From Escherichia coli (lineage in GTDB: Bacteria; Pseudomonadota; Gammaproteobacteria; Enterobacterales; Enterobacteriaceae): a DNA stretch of 47,767 bases. The notes beneath the pieces are model-generated. The model made no database searches. It saw only the letters and a list, made by a program, of their open reading frames with translations, and had not been told where the DNA came from. Below are positions 10,089 through 36,388 of the stretch, piece after piece. Both the position numbers and the translations under genes were made by a program. Location: NCBI GenBank assembly GCA_024546615.1, contig GCA_024546615.1_5040.1; one strand, written 5' to 3'. Within the stretch, counting starts at the first letter, position 1. Every line of letters starts with the position of its first letter.

Positions 10089-11123
10089 ATGGATAAGTTA
10101 AACAGCGTTGTACTTGACGCACAGACTATCGCGGGTAACCCGTGGGTCAAACAGTATCTGGACGGTCAGAACGCTATCAACGTTCCGGCTGAATTCCGTG
10201 ATGCTGACGGTGGTATCGCGTTCTACATCTCTCAGCTGGCACAGGTTGAGCAGACCGTTTACGCGACTCCATATGCAGATATTACCTATCTGCAGGATAT
10301 TCCGGTTGTGTCCGGCATCCCGGAACATGCGAACCATTGGGTGTACCGCTCATATGATGGCGTCACGGTTGGGAAATTCATCGGCGCAAACGCTATGGAC
10401 CTGCCACACGTCGCCCAGTCTGCAAAACTCCACACTGTACCGCTGAACTACGGTGGTATCGAGTGTCACTACAGCATCGACGAGCTGCGTACCACTGCGT
10501 CTCAGAACATGCCGATTGACACCATGCAGCAACAGTTGGCGTATCGTGGCTATGAAGAACACAGTCAGAAAGTGGCTTACTTCGGTGACTCACAACTGGG
10601 AATGGCCGGTCTGTTTAATAACAGCAACGTTACAGCGACCAGTGCAACTGTTGACTACACCACTGCCACCGGTCAGGAGCTGTTCAACATGCTCAACGAC
10701 CCACTGTTCGACGTCATCAAACTGTCCAAAAACTTCCACCTGCCTAACACCGTTCGCGTATTCCCGGACCTGTGGAAGCGCATGAACAGCACGCTAATGA
10801 CTGGTTACTCCGACACCACCGTAATGGAGTTTTTCAAAACCAACAACGCGTACACTCTGATGACCGGTCAGGAAATTGACATTCAGGTTCGTTTCCAGCT
10901 GACCGCTGCGGAGCTGGCTGCGGGCGGTGTGTCCAACGGTTCGAAAGACCGCGTGCTCATTTACGAGAAGAACGACCGCAACCTGGGTGTTGCTAAGCCG
11001 ATTCCGTTCCGTATGTTGGCACCACAGAACAAAGGTCTGGCCGTAACTGTACCGGCAGAGTATAAGATTTCAGGCACCGAAATTCGCTATCCTCTGAGCG
11101 CAATCTATCTCGACATGCTGTAA
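10089..11123 (+). CDS. Major capsid protein (lambda gpE-like fold presumed)
   Basis: 344 aa; position after scaffold/decoration genes; followed by strong intrinsic terminator. Confidence 0.7.
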   Translation: MDKLNSVVLDAQTIAGNPWVKQYLDGQNAINVPAEFRDADGGIAFYISQLAQVEQTVYATPYADITYLQDIPVVSGIPEHANHWVYRSYDGVTVGKFIGANAMDLPHVAQSAKLHTVPLNYGGIECHYSIDELRTTASQNMPIDTMQQQLAYRGYEEHSQKVAYFGDSQLGMAGLFNNSNVTATSATVDYTTATGQELFNMLNDPLFDVIKLSKNFHLPNTVRVFPDLWKRMNSTLMTGYSDTTVMEFFKTNNAYTLMTGQEIDIQVRFQLTAAELAAGGVSNGSKDRVLIYEKNDRNLGVAKPIPFRMLAPQNKGLAVTVPAEYKISGTEIRYPLSAIYLDML

Positions 11124-11172: not shown

Positions 11173-11219
11173 GTCTCCTCTTGGGTTATAGTTACCACCG
11201 TCTTAAGAGGAGGAATTCC

Positions 11220-12800
11220 ATGTTCGTAGAAAGAGCAAAAAAAATACATAAAGGGAAATACGACTATTCCAAAGTGGAATATGTAAATAATAAAACACCC
11301 GTGACGATAGTTTGTCCGGTGCACGGTGATTTCGTTCAAATACCGCAGGGACACCTGAACTGCGAAATAGCGTGTCCAAAATGTAGAATCGACGATGTTT
11401 ATGACCGAATGATACAGCGGGCACGGGAGATTCATGGTGACAGATACTCATACGTCCGGGAATCATTCGTTTCCGTAGTCAAGAAAATGTCTATAATTTG
11501 TCCTGTACACGGGGTGTATCGGATGACACTGAACAACCATGTTCACAATGGTGCGGAATGTAAACCATGCGCACTGGCGAAACGTGGAGAATCACAACGG
11601 AAGACACTTGACAGTTTTGTGGAAGACGCGAAAAAAGTTCATGGTGACAGATACGATTATTCCAAAGTTATTTACGAGGGCAACAAAAAGAAAATAACCA
11701 TCACTTGTGCAAAACATGGTGACTTCAAACAGGAACCATATTCACATCTTTCGGGAAGAGGTTGTCCAAAATGCGGTCTCGAATCCAGAGCAAGCAAAAG
11801 TATGAGTACTCTTGAAAGATTCATTCACAAAAGCAGAGCTATACACGGTGACAAGTATGATTATTCTAAAGCGGTGTATAAAGGTAGTGACCAAAAACTA
11901 ACCATAATTTGTCCGGTGCACGGTGAATTTTCCCAATACGCAAATAACCACTCTACTCTTGGTCATCAATGCCCGACGTGTTCAAAAGCGGGTGTGTCCC
12001 GAGGTGAATTTGAAGTCTTCAACTTCGTCCGTTCCATCTGTCCCGATGCGGTACAATCCGACCGTACAACCATTGGACCGCTGGAACTTGATGTTGTAGT
12101 GCCGTCGCGCAATCTGGCAATTGAATTTAACGGTCTGTACTGGCACGATGAGCGCACGAAAGACAAGAAGTATCACATCGCCAAGCGTCACCGCGTGGAA
12201 GCCGCAGGATACCGTCTGATAAGTATCCGTGAGGATGTCTGGAATGAGCGCCGTGAGCAGGTAGAAAATATCATTCGCAACGCGCTCGGCGTGACATCCG
12301 ACAAAGTGTTTGCCCGTAAATGTGACATCGTGGAAGTTTCGACGTCTGAAGCGAAGGTATTCATGGAGAAACACCACGTGCAGGGTTTCCGGGGTGCGAC
12401 CGTTCATTATGGTTTGCAACATGATGACACCTTAGTTGCTGTGATCAGTCTGACAAACTGGCAGAAAAAGAACGAATGGGAACTGGTACGATATGCAACC
12501 GCGTGTAATGTCCCGGGTGGACTGTCCCGCTTGTGGAAACATGCTACCACGGTTAACAGCATCGTCCGCGCCTATTCATACGTTGACCGGGATTTGTTCA
12601 GCGGTTCCAGTTACGCTAATGCCGGTTTCATACTTTCAGCCACAACAGTAGGATTCAGGATCGTAAATGGTTGCACAACCGAATCGCGTGAGAAGTGGAA
12701 CCGCGCACCAGACGGAATGACACAGACGCAATGGTACGAATCAGAAGGTGTATCACGCATCTACGATTCTGGACAGGACAAGCTGTTATGGGTAAAATGA
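11220..12800 (+). CDS. Homing-endonuclease-like protein: four tandem zinc-ribbon modules, Vsr/DUF559-like nuclease core, unknown C-domain
   Basis: Four repeats of ...HGDxYDYSKV.Y...K.TI.CP.HG.F.Q.P..HL.G.GCPKCG; then ELDVVVP...LAIEFNGLYWHDE resembling Vsr FVDGCFWH motif; RBS AGGAGG; inserted after capsid terminator. Confidence 0.6.
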   Translation: MFVERAKKIHKGKYDYSKVEYVNNKTPVTIVCPVHGDFVQIPQGHLNCEIACPKCRIDDVYDRMIQRAREIHGDRYSYVRESFVSVVKKMSIICPVHGVYRMTLNNHVHNGAECKPCALAKRGESQRKTLDSFVEDAKKVHGDRYDYSKVIYEGNKKKITITCAKHGDFKQEPYSHLSGRGCPKCGLESRASKSMSTLERFIHKSRAIHGDKYDYSKAVYKGSDQKLTIICPVHGEFSQYANNHSTLGHQCPTCSKAGVSRGEFEVFNFVRSICPDAVQSDRTTIGPLELDVVVPSRNLAIEFNGLYWHDERTKDKKYHIAKRHRVEAAGYRLISIREDVWNERREQVENIIRNALGVTSDKVFARKCDIVEVSTSEAKVFMEKHHVQGFRGATVHYGLQHDDTLVAVISLTNWQKKNEWELVRYATACNVPGGLSRLWKHATTVNSIVRAYSYVDRDLFSGSSYANAGFILSATTVGFRIVNGCTTESREKWNRAPDGMTQTQWYESEGVSRIYDSGQDKLLWVK

Positions 12801-31774: not shown

Positions 31775-32082
31775 GTGGTACATCAAAGCGAGAAAACATT
31801 ATGAGCTTTACCGGAAACACACAGGTCGGAACGGCAGTGGCAAGCGGGACGACTGTGACGGGTCTAATGACTAAGTATAACATCACCCCGGAAACTATCG
31901 GTATCTTCGCAACACTAGTGGGTATCGTACTTTCTCTGGTGATGATTTACGGCCACATAAAGCGTATCAGAAATGAATCGGCGGAACGCAAGGAAAAGGA
32001 AGCCATTGCAAGAATTGAAAAGGAAAAGGCAGAGATTGAACTTGCTGAAATGCGCCGAAGGATGAACAACCCGGCGCAGTGA
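31771..32082 (+). CDS. Membrane protein with single TM and charged coiled-coil C-terminus (holin candidate)
   Basis: TM IGIFATLVGIVLSLVMIY then ERKEKEAIARIEKEKAEIELAEMRRR. Confidence 0.4.
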   Translation: MSGTSKRENIMSFTGNTQVGTAVASGTTVTGLMTKYNITPETIGIFATLVGIVLSLVMIYGHIKRIRNESAERKEKEAIARIEKEKAEIELAEMRRRMNNPAQ

Positions 32083-32100
32083 TGCGCCGGTATTCTTGTT
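32071..32100. terminator. Bidirectional terminator hairpin CCGGCGCA-GTGA-TGCGCCGG plus T-rich tail
   Basis: Between convergent genes ending at 32082 (+) and 32099 (-). Confidence 0.55.
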
Positions 32101-32314
32101 ACCACTCCGCAATTAGTACCGGATTAATCATATCTGCGCGGCGATTACCGGTATCGGCCCAATCACCTGTTTCTGATTTTTTAAAATAATTCAGAGCATT
32201 TTCTTTAGAACCCACAATTGATTTCACCAATGCAGTGTAACCCCCGACGCCATCGAAGAAAAAATAACAGATTACCCCATCGATTTTGTCCACTGCTTCA
32301 TAAGCTTGTTTCAT
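32099..32314 (-). CDS. Hypothetical protein (72 aa)
   Basis: RBS AGAGAGGG and ATG downstream of promoter 32347-32375; track ORF trimmed to MKQAYEA. Confidence 0.45.
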   Translation of the reverse strand: MKQAYEAVDKIDGVICYFFFDGVGGYTALVKSIVGSKENALNYFKKSETGDWADTGNRRADMINPVLIAEW

Positions 32315-32346
32315 CTTGTCTACCCTCTCTGTTGTTGATATGAATA

Positions 32347-32375
32347 ACTCTAAACTACTTTGACGCACTCGTCAA
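32347..32375 (-). promoter_or_regulatory. Sigma70-like promoter TTGACG-17-TAGAGT overlapping palindrome TTGACGCACTCGTCAA (32360-32375), embedded in 3' end of upstream gene
   Basis: Spacing read directly. Confidence 0.5.
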
Positions 32376-32948
32376 CGGTAAAACTAACTTTTCTGCTTCC
32401 TGAATGTACCAGTCGTAATTCAGTGCTCCCCAGTCGAAGTCTTTAGCGTCGGCACACTCTGTCACCTTCCATCCTGCACACATACTTGTTTCGCGCACTG
32501 CATCGTGCTTACTGCGACTCTTCGTGTGGATACGCTCGTCCCACGGTGTACCAATGCTGTCGAGGTCGCCCGGTTGACCTGTAATCTCACGCATTACCGC
32601 ATTGTACACATCGTCCTTGACACCATTCTTACGCTTCCATGTACCTGGTGTACCAGTGGGCGGTAACAGCTTGACCAGTGACCCACCGTTACGCGAGATA
32701 AATACACGTGTGGTATTCTGCATCTCCTGTTCAGCGCCCCACTCAGGCCAACGCATCACCAGACGTGCCGAACGAGGTACTTTGGCGCGCAGCATGAAGT
32801 CGAACGGGTCACGGTGCTGCGTGATGAACGTGCGGATGTCAGTGTCAAACAGAAGTGCGGCTTCAGCGGCGCGGGCAACAATCATCGCCGATGGGTCTTG
32901 ATGCCACTGGTATTTGTACTCGTAACACCCTTTTCTTTTAATTTTCAC
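32355..32948 (-). CDS. Hypothetical protein (197 aa) sharing GTPWDERIH motif with 37785-38834
   Basis: Motif DSIGTPWDERIHTKS versus DSTGTPWDERIHSTS in the 349-aa protein. Confidence 0.45.
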   Translation of the reverse strand: MKIKRKGCYEYKYQWHQDPSAMIVARAAEAALLFDTDIRTFITQHRDPFDFMLRAKVPRSARLVMRWPEWGAEQEMQNTTRVFISRNGGSLVKLLPPTGTPGTWKRKNGVKDDVYNAVMREITGQPGDLDSIGTPWDERIHTKSRSKHDAVRETSMCAGWKVTECADAKDFDWGALNYDWYIQEAEKLVLPLTSASK

Positions 32949-33828
32949 GGGTTGCCTCCAGCATTTCTAAAATTCGATTGTCCCATTTCAACCATTCGGT
33001 ACAACCATCAAAACCAGATAGTCCAGCATTAACGAAAGAAGAATGAGTTAGTTTTTCGATAAATTCCATTTTTCCACCTATGCCAGATAAAACTCGGAGT
33101 AACTGAAAATCAAATGGCGTACTTCTTTTCAATTTCCTCAAGCGATATTTATAATTATTGCTGATACCGACCTTCATATATTCCCCACCTTTGGAAGCAA
33201 GTACATAAAGGGAAGCCATCTGGTTACGTTTAAATCCACTCTTAGAACAGTCTTGACATCCTTGTCCACCGGATACGTGATCTATAGCCAATTTTTCAAA
33301 ACTACCGTGAACAGGGCAAATTATCTTTATTTTATGATGATTACCTTTATATTGAGATTCCGAATAATCATACTTATCCCCATGTACTGCGCGGGCTTTC
33401 TCAATCCATTCTTCGGTGTTATAAAGAGGAAGTCGTCCTTTTCCAGGACCTCCTGCGCATTTCGCGCACCCGTGGCCTTTTAGATGATTGCCGGCTAATT
33501 GGAGGAATTCCCCATGCTCTCGACAAATGATTATTATTTCTGAATGTCGTTTTTTATACTTAACCTTCGAATAATCATACTTATCTCCATGTACTGCACG
33601 GGCTTTCTCAATCCATTCTTCAGTGCTGGATTTTTTTGTCCCACCACAAACTGGGCAGCCGGAACCAGAACAGTGAGACGTGGGTTCTTGTCGGAAATCT
33701 CCATGCAATCGACAAACAATGGTCACTTTATGTTTTGAAGTACGATACTCGACCTTCGAATAATCATACTTATCTCCGTGTACCGCACGGGCTTTCTCAA
33801 TCCATTCTTCTGTGTTCAATCTTCTCAT
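32938..33828 (-). CDS. Homing-endonuclease-like protein: three tandem zinc-ribbon modules plus C-terminal T5orf172 (GIY-YIG-like) domain
   Basis: Three repeats of EEWIEKARAVHGDKYDYS...; C-terminal YVLASKGGEYMKVGISNNYKYRLRKL...GCTEWLKW; contains three ~55-bp DNA direct repeats. Confidence 0.6.
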   Translation of the reverse strand: MRRLNTEEWIEKARAVHGDKYDYSKVEYRTSKHKVTIVCRLHGDFRQEPTSHCSGSGCPVCGGTKKSSTEEWIEKARAVHGDKYDYSKVKYKKRHSEIIIICREHGEFLQLAGNHLKGHGCAKCAGGPGKGRLPLYNTEEWIEKARAVHGDKYDYSESQYKGNHHKIKIICPVHGSFEKLAIDHVSGGQGCQDCSKSGFKRNQMASLYVLASKGGEYMKVGISNNYKYRLRKLKRSTPFDFQLLRVLSGIGGKMEFIEKLTHSSFVNAGLSGFDGCTEWLKWDNRILEMLEATREN

Positions 33829-35348
33829 TCTATTACCATTATGTAATTATTCACATCTCGCTGATAGAGAGATTTCACAATATCAGTCTCCAGATTCAAC
33901 ATTGTTGTTTTTTCCCAAGACTTACATATGGATTCCACCAAAATTTCATATTTGTTTTCATAAAAAATGACGATTCCGTCAGTATTAGTTTGCGGTACGA
34001 TTAATCCGGGTACACGAGTTACAAGTTGGTCTACCAACATTGCCAAACAGAGTTGACCTGTAATAGTAATACTCAGGAGACACTTATGGTCACAAAATGG
34101 GCTAAATTTACTCCCCATGTTCCCAAATGTACCATTAAGAGCAAGTTTCAATGCCGCATCAACTGTTTTATCTCCCGCTCGTTTTGCATCACGACGACGA
34201 ATGAACAGTTGTTCATATACGTCGCAAAAAGTTTCACTAAGGTGTTCCGGATAGTACCTATTCTTTATACTAATGGAAGGGTACATACTTGTACAGTCTT
34301 TGTTTTGTAAATTGTGTGTTTGGGTAGAATGCACAACGTAGTTCGGAATACTACTGTGAATACCTCCCAATCCGAACGAATATTCGACACCATCAACTGT
34401 GACGGTCATATCACTAAACACACCTTTTGTGGTCAGTAATTCGTCCTGTTGTTTCTTCGTGAGTACAACCCCACGAATGCGTTCCAGAATTTGATTGAAC
34501 TCCGGTCGTTCGAATTTGATATAAGGGGGTATGCAATCTGCAAGTGCAATACGTTCACGAATGGTTACTCCGGAGCAATCTACCCCGGCCTTTTCCAGCT
34601 CGTGAACGAATATATCTTTGCCGATTTTAGTGTCGGCGTGGTTCATGAAGTTACGTCCGTATTGCTTTGTCAGTTCCTCACGGAAATGGATTTTGTCGAG
34701 TGAACGTACAAAGAATTTCAGCGTCTCTCGCACGTCGTGTTTGTTATATACGATGAGGATATCTTTCTGCGCATCGTTCAGCACCATTCCGACCGGGAAT
34801 GGCAGGTCTTTTACGTTGGGGGACTGCATGCCCACTTCCAACGCCTTCAGACTGGTGCGCCGGGCTTTATTATCAAAGTGATGAATTTTGTACAGGTCAA
34901 TCTGCTCGAAAATCTGGTCGCGGTCCCATACAATTTCGGGCCACTGACCTTCGGGTTTAATTTGTGATTGTGCTTTTGTGTAAATCTGTTCCAGTGTACA
35001 GCCTGGTGTATTGACCACGTAGTGCAACACCGGATAGTCGAATGCCAGGTTATTAAATCCAATCCCACGGGCCTTACTACATCCCAGGTTGAACACAAAT
35101 TCGATTAATTGCGGTTGCTCGTTTTTGCGGTCACTAATCTCGAAGATTAACTCCATACCCGTCGCAGCGTGAATAAATGAGGCAGTGAAGATATTCGGAT
35201 ACGTCTCGATGTCCCATCCCCAGTCCCGCGGGTCCAGTGGTGCAACGCTGGAGAACGCCGAATCAGCCCCACAGTGAGGGCAATTGTGGAGGTCAGCGGG
35301 ATAATTTTTACCGCAAGTTGCATCCTCGCATTTTGATAAATAGTGCAT
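33825..35348 (-). CDS. Compact family-B DNA polymerase with 3'-5' exonuclease motifs and N-terminal zinc finger
   Basis: Exo I WDIETY, Exo II FNNLAFDYPVL, Exo III YNKHDVRE; motif A DCTSMYPSI, motif B KLALNGTFG, motif C TNTDG; N-terminal C-x4-C-x11-C-x2-C. Confidence 0.7.
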   Translation of the reverse strand: MHYLSKCEDATCGKNYPADLHNCPHCGADSAFSSVAPLDPRDWGWDIETYPNIFTASFIHAATGMELIFEISDRKNEQPQLIEFVFNLGCSKARGIGFNNLAFDYPVLHYVVNTPGCTLEQIYTKAQSQIKPEGQWPEIVWDRDQIFEQIDLYKIHHFDNKARRTSLKALEVGMQSPNVKDLPFPVGMVLNDAQKDILIVYNKHDVRETLKFFVRSLDKIHFREELTKQYGRNFMNHADTKIGKDIFVHELEKAGVDCSGVTIRERIALADCIPPYIKFERPEFNQILERIRGVVLTKKQQDELLTTKGVFSDMTVTVDGVEYSFGLGGIHSSIPNYVVHSTQTHNLQNKDCTSMYPSISIKNRYYPEHLSETFCDVYEQLFIRRRDAKRAGDKTVDAALKLALNGTFGNMGSKFSPFCDHKCLLSITITGQLCLAMLVDQLVTRVPGLIVPQTNTDGIVIFYENKYEILVESICKSWEKTTMLNLETDIVKSLYQRDVNNYIMVIE

Positions 35349-35365
35349 CTCTGTTCCTCTCTGTA

Positions 35366-35392
35366 AGAAAAGCCCCGTGAGGGGCTTAATTG
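35366..35392 (-). terminator. Hairpin AAGCCCC-TCAC-GGGGCTT plus U-rich tail on minus strand, upstream of polymerase RBS (terminator/attenuator)
   Basis: Read directly; followed on minus strand by RBS AGAGAGGAACAGAG and polymerase ATG. Confidence 0.45.
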
Positions 35393-35527
35393 TTAACCTT
35401 TCGTATACTTATTTAAACCATTCTGGTTAATGTATTCCCGGCGTTGCTCCTGCACCTGTTTGATAGCCTTTTCCAGTTCGGCTAGCTTTTCATCAAACTG
35501 TTTCAGTCGCTGGTCATGTTCGGTCAT
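35393..35527 (-). CDS. Small coiled-coil protein (44 aa)
   Basis: MTEHDQRLKQFDEKLAELEKAIKQVQEQRREY...; RBS AGAGAGGTG; below track cutoff. Confidence 0.3.
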   Translation of the reverse strand: MTEHDQRLKQFDEKLAELEKAIKQVQEQRREYINQNGLNKYTKG

Positions 35528-35575
35528 GATGCACCTCTCTGTTAAATTACCCCGGCTTGCACCGGGGCGTTGTGG

Positions 35576-36388
35576 TTATGCTACTTTCTGACAGTGTTGC
35601 GCGATTAACTCTTCGCTCCAGCCGGGCATGCCGAGCAATTGTGCTTTGGTGTACACCGTGCCGTTGTAGCTGTACTTCTCTTCAACAACCGGCGGAGGTG
35701 TTACCAGCAGGTCAGTTGCTGGCGGCGGTGTTGCAGGTGCTGGGGCAGCCGGGGCTGGGGTTGATGCTACCTGAGCGGGTGCGCCAGCACCGAACACGCT
35801 TGCTGCATCCGGACCGCTGCCTTCACGAACAATCGCTTCGCCAGGACGTGACAGTTCGAGCAGGTTTGGGTTCAGATACACGCCCGGAGTTTTGGACGGC
35901 TTATTACCCTTCGCTACGATGTTCACGCGGACATAATCGCCGAGCTTAATAGCGTTTACGTCCTGAATCGCATCGAGCGGATTATATTTGCCAACATGAT
36001 AACAGTTGTACGGGATGCGGGTGTTCAGGTGTAATACCCAGTGACCGCGTTTGTATTCGTCGCTGTTTGGCGCGTGACCGGCTTTGTTTGGGATGTCGCT
36101 GTCACCGTCGATTACTTTCCAGGAAAAGTCCGGGCGACGAGTGGTAGCAACATCATAACCGTTCTCAGCGTCCAGTGCCGCCATAACAATTTGTTTACCC
36201 CATTCGGTATCTTTCCAGTCTGCTTCGCCAGTTTTAGGGATTGCGATACCGATGTAAATTTCTTTAACCGGCTGACCATCTTTACCAATAACCGGCTGCT
36301 TTGTGACATCATCAGTGCGTACATTTTGTTTCAGCGGGTGACCGTGAATCAGGCGAGCAACAGGGGTAACGAAAGTAAATTGAGCCAT
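35576..36388 (-). CDS. ssDNA-binding protein, DUF2815-like
   Basis: Pattern resembles DUF2815 phage SSBs; Pro/Ala-rich linker and conserved C-terminal tail; adjacent to Cas4-like nuclease. Confidence 0.55.
   Translation of the reverse strand: MAQFTFVTPVARLIHGHPLKQNVRTDDVTKQPVIGKDGQPVKEIYIGIAIPKTGEADWKDTEWGKQIVMAALDAENGYDVATTRRPDFSWKVIDGDSDIPNKAGHAPNSDEYKRGHWVLHLNTRIPYNCYHVGKYNPLDAIQDVNAIKLGDYVRVNIVAKGNKPSKTPGVYLNPNLLELSRPGEAIVREGSGPDAASVFGAGAPAQVASTPAPAAPAPATPPPATDLLVTPPPVVEEKYSYNGTVYTKAQLLGMPGWSEELIAQHCQKVA

Follow-up and report, generated by a model that had tools for sequence, protein, structure and literature searches.

Homing endonuclease genes (HEGs) of the T5orf172 type were described by Barth, Dunham and Seed (2023; PMC10448857), who reported proteins in which repeated CapR/DUF723/DUF4379 zinc-finger domains are arranged as 'beads on a string'. 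In the same study, nucleotide repeats were found to be recombination substrates, as illustrated by a 228-bp in-frame deletion in gp174 of phage ICP1, domains were swapped among HEGs, and the genes lay within or close to essential genes and coincided with genetic-exchange boundaries. Another T5orf172 protein, ICP1 Odn, cuts DNA in vitro, an activity lost in the E180A mutant (PMC8263062). Essential genes in two pieces are also known. The seg43(25) gene is located in gene 43 (PolB) of Aeromonas phage 25, where the two parts of the split polymerase purify together and show activity (Petrov et al. 2010, as cited in PMC2988022); the HEG may or may not be the cause of the split in this T4-like phage. 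The mobE gene splits the essential nrdA gene of phage Aeh1 (2007 study, as cited in PMC2988022 and PMC10448857). Here, we analysed a 47,767-nt stretch of DNA (contig GCA_024546615.1_5040.1, hereafter the window), which represents a Jedunavirus, i.e., a JD001-like Klebsiella myovirus whose closest GenBank relatives are approximately 90-93% identical over the region studied. The element of interest is a 296-residue putative endonuclease with three zinc modules and a T5orf172 domain, encoded within a family-B DNA polymerase gene. We consider it likely that a free-standing T5orf172 HEG produced this two-piece polymerase at a hot spot used by multiple occupants, with the activity, target and homing of the nuclease and the assembly of the polymerase fragments being inferred. 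Literature searches returned no published account of a split Jedunavirus polymerase.

The split polymerase and its junctions

The initial annotation placed the endonuclease gene against the 3' end of the polymerase gene and overlapping it. This was incorrect, as the gene lies inside the polymerase: the 507-residue open reading frame (ORF) on one side is the N-terminal part only (polN), and the downstream ORF encoding the C-terminal 197 residues (polC) had been left out. The interruption is evident because positions 23-507 and 512-654 of the PHROG 1252 profile fall on the two flanking ORFs, and because Escherichia phage ZCEC13, a member of the same genus, carries a single uninterrupted polymerase gene of 704 codons, equal to the sum of the two fragments (507 + 197). 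The polN fragment contains the exonuclease motifs, motifs A to C and, as a KxY-type strand, ...YQRDVNNYI, followed by the foreign tail MVIE*; polC supplies the other strand of the KxY hairpin (KIKRKG...) along with the remaining C-terminal region. When aligned, the intact sequence ...YQRDVNNYI-QVGTDG-KIKRKG... corresponded in the window to ...YQRDVNNYI-MVIE-stop, the 296-residue ORF and (GTG)M-KIKRKG..., i.e., the six codons for QVGTDG were swapped for MVIE*, the endonuclease gene and a start codon. The sole PDB sequence matches of the intact homologue were family-B polymerases, and the break aligned to the hairpin turn 'KKNYFGVYQDGKVDIKGM' of S. solfataricus PolB1. The RDVN(N/S)Y and KR(K/I)GAY residues were the best conserved around the site in 33 intact relatives, down to approximately 47% identity, and all 33 sampled alleles were open across the insertion site. 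On these alignments, the polymerase is best read as a gene in pieces, split at a conserved hairpin by the endonuclease gene. The split form was found in many viable isolates; solely from this viability of the phages, we infer that the two fragments assemble into an active enzyme.

The three cistrons are linked to one another. No part of the insert lies outside the endonuclease ORF, which shares 4 nt with polN and 11 nt with polC. Reading of the sequence upstream of the endonuclease ATG identified no strong Shine-Dalgarno sequence. The promoter/terminator scan detected no promoter-like site on the coding strand within the insert, the counts being near the shuffle expectation, and polN, the endonuclease gene and polC are probably co-transcribed.

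The same junctions bear on two explanations in which the polymerase would be made whole again. An endonuclease encoded by a group I (or II) intron would leave a polymerase mRNA restored by splicing, as in the tape-measure and terminase genes of ICP1; seemingly split phage genes can indeed be spliced (Barth et al. 2023, PMC10448857), and polN and polC share a reading frame according to their ORF coordinates. However, no Rfam intron family was detected at E ≤ 10 in positions 32000-35600, the ORF takes up the entire insert and leaves no space for a ribozyme core, and the six insert types found at this site in related phages (described below) share their junctions only, with no common non-coding core and with the polC start codon supplied by each type at the same position. 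We regard splicing as very unlikely. Alternatively, the polymerase halves could be ligated post-translationally by an intein or a split intein, and there is precedent in 'fractured genes', whose split-intein halves flank a free-standing HEG (Dassa 2009, PMC2677866). This reading was refuted by the sequence and retains practically no probability: the endonuclease frame differs from that of the polymerase, the 704 residues of polN and polC leave none for an intein-sized element, and the Pfam search of the three ORFs identified no Hint or intein domain.

Downstream of the polymerase region, between convergent ORFs, we noted a perfect 8-bp GC-rich hairpin (CCGGCGCA-loop-TGCGCCGG, 32071-32090) with a terminator-like score on both strands and a chance-level match to Rfam CRISPR-DR16.

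The putative endonuclease and its repeats

A C-terminal T5orf172/GIY-YIG-like nuclease had been proposed in the initial annotation, and the profile search agreed. Both MUG113 (24.9 bits versus the Pfam curated cut-off of 22.3) and T5orf172 (21.8 bits versus 20) passed over residues 207-287. The protein as a whole matched PHROG 681 'endonuclease' with E = 6e-67, and strong matches were obtained to PHROGs 681, 559 and 4605. The family is very large (733 phage records in tblastn; more than 7,900 proteins at E ≤ 1e-10), with 25-45% identity between the endonuclease and most of its other phage homologues. The T5orf172 match was stronger for two of the insert types from relatives (B and B2) than for the type present in the window (A3), and B2 also touched PF01541 GIY-YIG. 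Six residues (Y208, K219, N224, R229, E258 and E278, the last located in the GCTEW motif) were invariant across seven T5orf172 homologues of 39-99% identity. As matched by motif order, Y208, R229 and E278 correspond to catalytic positions of I-TevI or Odn, so the catalytic Tyr, Arg and Glu appear to be conserved. The AlphaFold2 (AF2) model predicted a GIY-YIG alpha/beta fold for the nuclease domain. Further GIY-YIG proteins stood at ranks 5-19 among the matches to the model, with unrelated proteins interleaved (AtGRXS16 N-domain, 5.3; UPF0213, 5.1; I-TevI, 4.7; PD-T4-3, 4.6; UvrC-N, 4.3; Eco29kI, 3.9; T4 EndoII, 3.8), and the PDB sequence search with the endonuclease gave chance-level matches only. 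In favour of reading the T5orf172 domain as a nuclease, Odn is a proven nuclease dependent on the equivalent Glu. Based on its sequence, the protein is classed in the T5orf172/GIY-YIG superfamily with a putative nuclease activity.

The initial annotation further described three zinc-ribbon-type modules encoded by near-identical DNA repeats. Self-alignment by blastn recovered 60-nt cores with 91.7% identity (E = 5e-19), and the proposed positions were right to within a few bases. The repeat search returned one direct-repeat family with three copies (33349-33427, 33556-33634 and 33745-33823), 80-89% identical over 79 nt and spaced by 207 and 189 nt. Tandem Repeats Finder reported nothing because the copies are dispersed approximately 200 nt apart instead of lying head-to-tail. 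Each module opens with TEEWIEKARAVHGDKYDYS, within the first 20 repeat-encoded residues, and contains a C-x2-H...C-x2-C set (C39/H42/C58/C61, C102/H105/C121/C124 and C171/H174/C191/C194) that was invariant in homologues. In the AF2 model, every module consisted of a helix, a beta-hairpin and a short helix (pLDDT, predicted local distance difference test, 80-91). A protein 99% identical to the A3 endonuclease (P0001) has a precomputed PF05265 match; among the 120 matches listed, nearly all carry PF05265 and most carry PF14311 too. The modules are interpreted as a CapR/DUF723/DUF4379-like zinc array with a putative DNA-binding role.

The similarity among the modules was concentrated in the repeats, with 88-95% nucleotide identity over the first 20 codons versus 47-50% over the remaining parts. 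Among codons for identical residues, synonymous changes affected 11 of 58 in the first 20 codons versus 31 of 49 elsewhere (Fisher p = 4e-6). Within one genome, the repeat copies were alike at 52-54 of 57 nt in the window and at 55-56 of 57 nt in L017, a metagenomic contig with a 79%-identical orthologue of the endonuclease; orthologous copies compared between the two were less alike (48-51 of 57 nt). Because within-genome copies are closer than between-genome orthologues and synonymous changes are few, the repeats are seen to evolve in concert by intragenic gene conversion. The suggestion that they could promote copy-number variation was confirmed by natural alleles with three, two and one modules: the A2 allele is an exact repeat 1/repeat 2 fusion with a 189-nt deletion, and the A1 allele is an exact repeat 1/repeat 3 fusion with a 396-nt deletion. 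The E-value of the 60-nt cores speaks against chance similarity, and the repeats are not an assembly or sequencing artefact, because the same three-repeat gene recurs in several independent GenBank phage genomes and IMG/VR contigs, including the L017 orthologue with its own three repeats; we give either possibility hardly any weight. The coordinates of the features are listed in the table.

Table. Positions of the polymerase fragments, the putative endonuclease gene and associated features in the window
Feature	Position	Strand	Details
Endonuclease gene, type A3	32938..33828	-	296 residues, ATG start; three zinc modules and T5orf172 domain; from ORF scan
Nuclease domain (T5orf172, GIY-YIG superfamily)	32941..33243	-	residues 196-296; predicted
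Zinc module 1	33625..33813	-	residues 6-68; repeat copy 1 is the first 20 codons, 33754-33813
Zinc module 2	33418..33624	-	residues 69-137; repeat copy 2, 33565-33624
Zinc module 3	33235..33417	-	residues 138-198; repeat copy 3, 33358-33417
polN, N-terminal polymerase fragment	33825..35348	-	507 residues; PHROG 1252, E = 8.8e-164, profile positions 23-507 of 663
polC, C-terminal polymerase fragment	32355..32948	-	197 residues; PHROG 15833, E = 1.3e-89; PHROG 1252 positions 512-654
ATGA overlap	33825..33828	-	polN TGA stop 33827-33825, endonuclease ATG 33828-33826; from sequence reading
GGAGG Shine-Dalgarno	32955..32959	-	6 nt before polC GTG (32948-32946), within the endonuclease coding sequence
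polN tract tied to the insert (putative co-conversion tract)	33829..34748	-	approximately 0.8-0.9 kb; GC 34-41%; haplotype tracks insert type
Last 112 nt of endonuclease gene	32938..33049	-	99% identical to the 3' end of the type-B gene (pKp383, KpV79); holds the polC start region

Another zinc-ribbon endonuclease candidate of the window, the 'first' one, is a 539-residue ORF (11181-12800, plus strand) located directly after the major head protein gene (10089-11123; PHROG 264). It contains four DUF723-type modules with 37-50% amino acid identity to those of the 296-residue protein. Its C-terminal region is a different one, matching PHROG 559 and 3339 'homing endonuclease' and, weakly, the Pfam MTES_1575 REase family.

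Occupancy of the site and linkage of its flank

The homing-endonuclease-like location suggested by the initial annotation was substantiated by the comparison of related polymerase loci, in which the same codon was either empty or occupied. The locus was taken from 15 GenBank relatives and the inserts were typed; a concatenated query was then used for the counts. One of six insert types was present at this codon in 22 distinct GenBank phages, and the others were intact. The six types belong to three nuclease families, namely T5orf172 (A, B and B2), HNH_3 (HNH-a, which also has AP2, and HNH-b) and canonical GIY-YIG (GIY). Type A has EEWIEKA modules, three of them in A3 (the window, JYSS3, JustaPhage, KLPPOU148 and SCNJ1-Y), two in A2 (233 residues; FZ14, RCIP0081 and, as judged by match span only, probably RCIP0033) and one in A1 (164 residues; RCIP0093). 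Type B combines T5orf172 with three different DUF4379 modules (pKp383, KpV79 and RCIP0055), and B2 is a third T5orf172 type (BUCT791 and, unannotated there, JD001). HNH-a was found in BUCT_49532 and RCIP0045, HNH-b in KpVB3, cmc20193, RCIP0030, RCIP0091 and RCIP0047, and GIY in KpTDp1 and KpTRp1. The polymerase was intact in the fetched genes of ZCEC13, PEAT2, 1611E-K2-1 and LAPP1 and, according to match spans, in VLCpiM12a, RCIP0108 and CWW26. All six types overlap the polC start codon by 4-14 nt, each of them supplying its own polC start. The left junction ATAATGGTAATAGAATGA, encoding the MVIE* tail of polN, was identical in A, B, B2 and HNH-a, and HNH-b and GIY had their own junctions. The IMG/VR scan with polC yielded 80 loci, 59 intact and 21 occupied (A3, 3; B, 3; B2, 1; HNH-b, 6; HNH-b-like, 4; GIY-like, 4). 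The gaps measured 12-51 nt or at least 601 nt, i.e., the IMG/VR loci included no HEG-less split allele and no decayed remnant with an insert between 51 and 601 nt. The insertion codon is a multi-occupant hot spot.

The GIY-like occupants of four IMG/VR loci (L067, L076, L091 and L092) were 42-48% identical to the GIY-YIG protein of KpTDp1, and the polC identity was 49-65%. Because canonical GIY-YIG genes are located at the site in such distant phages, the use of this polymerase site by HEGs reaches well beyond Jedunavirus. In RCIP0045 (L012 342-833), an extra 163-residue endonuclease gene (PHROG 3322 and 1035; endonuclease VII/HNH-like) is located upstream and overlaps the polN start; because of this gene and the HNH-a insert, polN has nuclease genes at both ends. 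In FZ14 (L005 1-327), an annotated 'HNH homing endonuclease' precedes the polymerase gene by approximately 2 kb, which again points to an abundance of mobile nuclease genes in the replication module of these phages. In public records, the insert is named inconsistently and misleadingly. JYSS3 (L001 2062-2952) and JustaPhage list it as a 'type 2 secretion system protein', T5orf172 inserts are labelled 'HNH endonuclease' in pKp383 (L002 2061-2897) and BUCT791, and an intact 276-residue T5orf172 ORF of JD001 (L009 1864-2694) is annotated merely as a 192-nt fragment. Otherwise, the GenBank records list the insert as 'hypothetical' and the polymerase as two separate 'DNA polymerase' genes.

Flank linkage was evaluated as the identity to the window across the last approximately 600-780 nt of polN, sorted by occupant. 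The flank was 92-99% identical in A-type phages, 80-87% in B-type phages, 67-92% in the HNH and B2 types (67-79% in the approximately 300 nt nearest the site) and 51-71% in the empty (ZCEC13) and GIY-type alleles. Outside this tract, the polymerase gene was mostly approximately 82-96% identical in all occupant classes. The GC content of the tract was 34-44% in A-type phages versus 47-53% in the empty allele. The IMG/VR locus L033, compared with the window, was 87-95% identical over the first 600 nt of polN, 98-100% identical from nt 600 of polN to the last base of the endonuclease gene (approximately 1.8 kb), and dropped to 89-92% exactly at the polC start. This block is the expected trace of a recent gene conversion of the HEG with its upstream tract, as a comparative signature from which the event is deduced. 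The asymmetry of the flanks suggests that the cut is made at the insertion point itself or farther upstream within polN, as is common among the free-standing endonucleases of T4 (Edgell et al. 2010, PMC2988022). The position of the cut could not be located computationally.

More distant intact alleles also changed in identity at this position. The 60 nt directly 5' of the site were 41-46% identical to those of PEAT2, 1611E-K2-1 and LAPP1 (ZCEC13, 59%), and the first 120 nt 3' of it were approximately 72-83% identical to the same distant alleles, with mostly 80-97% farther on. At the protein level, polC was 86-98% identical to PEAT2 (a different genus), 1611E-K2-1 and LAPP1 (an Acinetobacter phage) and most of polN approximately 40-80%, the switch falling exactly at the insertion site. 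This is consistent with a long-range exchange of the 3' part of the polymerase, or of everything downstream. HEGs have also recombined with one another: types A and B could not be aligned for approximately 780 nt before their shared 112-nt end, which places the breakpoint within the nuclease domain.

The substitution rates pointed to selection on all three genes. Between the window and JYSS3, the endonuclease gene had a synonymous rate (Ks) of 0.19 and a non-synonymous rate (Ka) of 0.006 (Ka/Ks = 0.03). The L017 orthologue is inserted at the same site in a more distant polymerase (polC, 73.5% amino acid identity), and between these two split loci the Ka/Ks was 0.13 for polC and 0.06 for the polN tail. 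The endonuclease gene and both polymerase pieces are thus under purifying selection, and the split arrangement is old and functional, because the L017 orthologue lies at the site and purifying selection acts on both polymerase pieces there.

Origin of the arrangement and comparison with known systems

As expected of a homing endonuclease, the gene was present or absent at one exact codon among close relatives, and the flank was inherited with it, which is the comparative signature of co-conversion. In the mechanism we propose, the three zinc modules, strung like beads, would bind an extended stretch of DNA in polymerase alleles without this insert, and the T5orf172 domain would cut the bound target. 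In co-infection, the break would be repaired from the HEG-carrying genome, and the HEG would be copied together with up to approximately 0.9 kb of upstream polymerase sequence. The polymerase would tolerate the insert owing to its position, at the turn of the conserved KxY hairpin. Translation would be chained through the ATGA in which the polN stop and the start of the HEG overlap, and through the GGAGG and GTG that the 3' end of the HEG provides to polC. Intragenic gene conversion would keep the 60-nt repeats alike, and the same recombination would delete modules, giving the three-, two- and one-module alleles.

Several points weigh against this proposal. Cleavage, the target site and homing of the A3 protein are read from sequence comparison, and Barth et al. 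(2023, PMC10448857) stated that homing has been experimentally shown for no T5orf172 HEG. The AF2 model of the endonuclease was built on an alignment of just seven sequences. The zinc modules of the A3 protein scored slightly under the Pfam cut-offs (DUF4379, 22.2 versus 24.5; DUF723, 20.3 versus 20.9; CapR, 15.6 versus 24.2), although homologues pass. Ordinary recombination of diverged phages with a boundary at the insert could in principle produce the flank haplotypes without any nuclease. Moreover, the very strong purifying selection (Ka/Ks of 0.03) and the lack of decayed or HEG-less split alleles in approximately 100 loci exceed what a purely selfish element needs and fit a gene that also benefits the phage.

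The last two observations favour the view that the gene is a HEG descendant domesticated as a nuclease or DNA-binding protein and now kept for the benefit of the phage; the protein might exclude co-infecting relatives, act against satellites (as ICP1 Odn does), serve as a CapR-like repressor or couple the start of polC. Low Ka/Ks over a Ks of 0.19 and the bimodal gap sizes are joined on this side by the endonuclease ORF being intact in every A-type genome found, the polC ribosome-binding site lying inside the endonuclease gene, and the precedents of co-opted T5orf172 and CapR domains (PMC8263062, PMC10448857). However, the presence of the gene varies among close relatives, unrelated HNH and GIY-YIG genes replace the insert at the same codon, the L033 block represents recent lateral movement of the gene with its flank, and module-deletion alleles are tolerated. 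We consider domestication unlikely as the explanation, and it is compatible with homing.

Starting again from a HEG at a hot spot, a more far-reaching reading can be put forward tentatively, and we hold it to be less probable than not. The turn of the KxY hairpin could be a contested landing pad on which three nuclease families displace one another, each with its own upstream haplotype and each hard to lose, with the HEG acting as an agent of competition between phages. The upstream haplotype would possibly be an immunity to the occupant's own cut. The occupant may be hard to lose because its 3' end holds the translation start of the essential polC. The module number (3, 2 or 1) may serve as a rapidly evolving dial that redirects the nuclease to rival alleles, and the HEG, with its Ka/Ks of 0.03, may be positively maintained and not a neutral parasite.

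The locus is a natural experiment: at a single codon of an essential gene, there is either no insert or one of six nuclease genes, one of them in three-, two- and one-module forms. The allele series could be used to study how CapR/DUF723-type zinc arrays read DNA and whether T5orf172 genes home, and the split site to study how a family-B polymerase copes with an interrupted palm hairpin. As Jedunaviruses are candidates for Klebsiella therapy, mobile nucleases that reshuffle replication genes in co-infection matter for the design of cocktails.

Among the known systems, ICP1 gp174 and its relatives share with the window gene an N-terminal zinc-finger array, a C-terminal T5orf172 domain, nucleotide repeats in the DNA-binding region, deletion by repeat recombination, HEG domain swapping, an essential-gene location and a position at an exchange boundary. 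In contrast to gp174, the window gene belongs to a Jedunavirus of Klebsiella, lies inside the polymerase ORF and splits it, and the Jedunavirus gene offers the full series of 3/2/1-module alleles together with explicit concerted evolution of the repeats. ICP1 Odn (gp88) likewise has a T5orf172 catalytic domain with the conserved Arg and Glu (Barth et al. 2021, PMC8263062); it differs in its RepA_N DNA-binding domain and in being an anti-satellite weapon, not a gene insert (PMC8263062). The modular beads-on-a-string organisation also recalls I-TevI and the T4 Seg endonucleases, for which homing is accompanied by flank co-conversion and cleavage is often distant from the insert; the window gene shows the corresponding flank-linkage signature. 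Its nuclease domain is C-terminal (N-terminal in I-TevI), its second motif is K-V-G instead of Y-I-G, its DNA-binding modules are different, and it has no intron. Like seg43(25), the window gene is a free-standing HEG of the GIY-YIG class tied to a two-cistron family-B phage polymerase, although the phage family and the polymerase lineage are different and the nuclease is of the T5orf172 and not the Seg type. Like mobE of Aeh1, it interrupts an essential gene in a region that is conserved and critical to function; the two nrdA polypeptides of Aeh1 are described as reassembling, and mobE differs in being an HNH nuclease in another host gene with one known occupant. The principle at the window locus is a known one, and the value of the locus is its unusually complete natural allele series.

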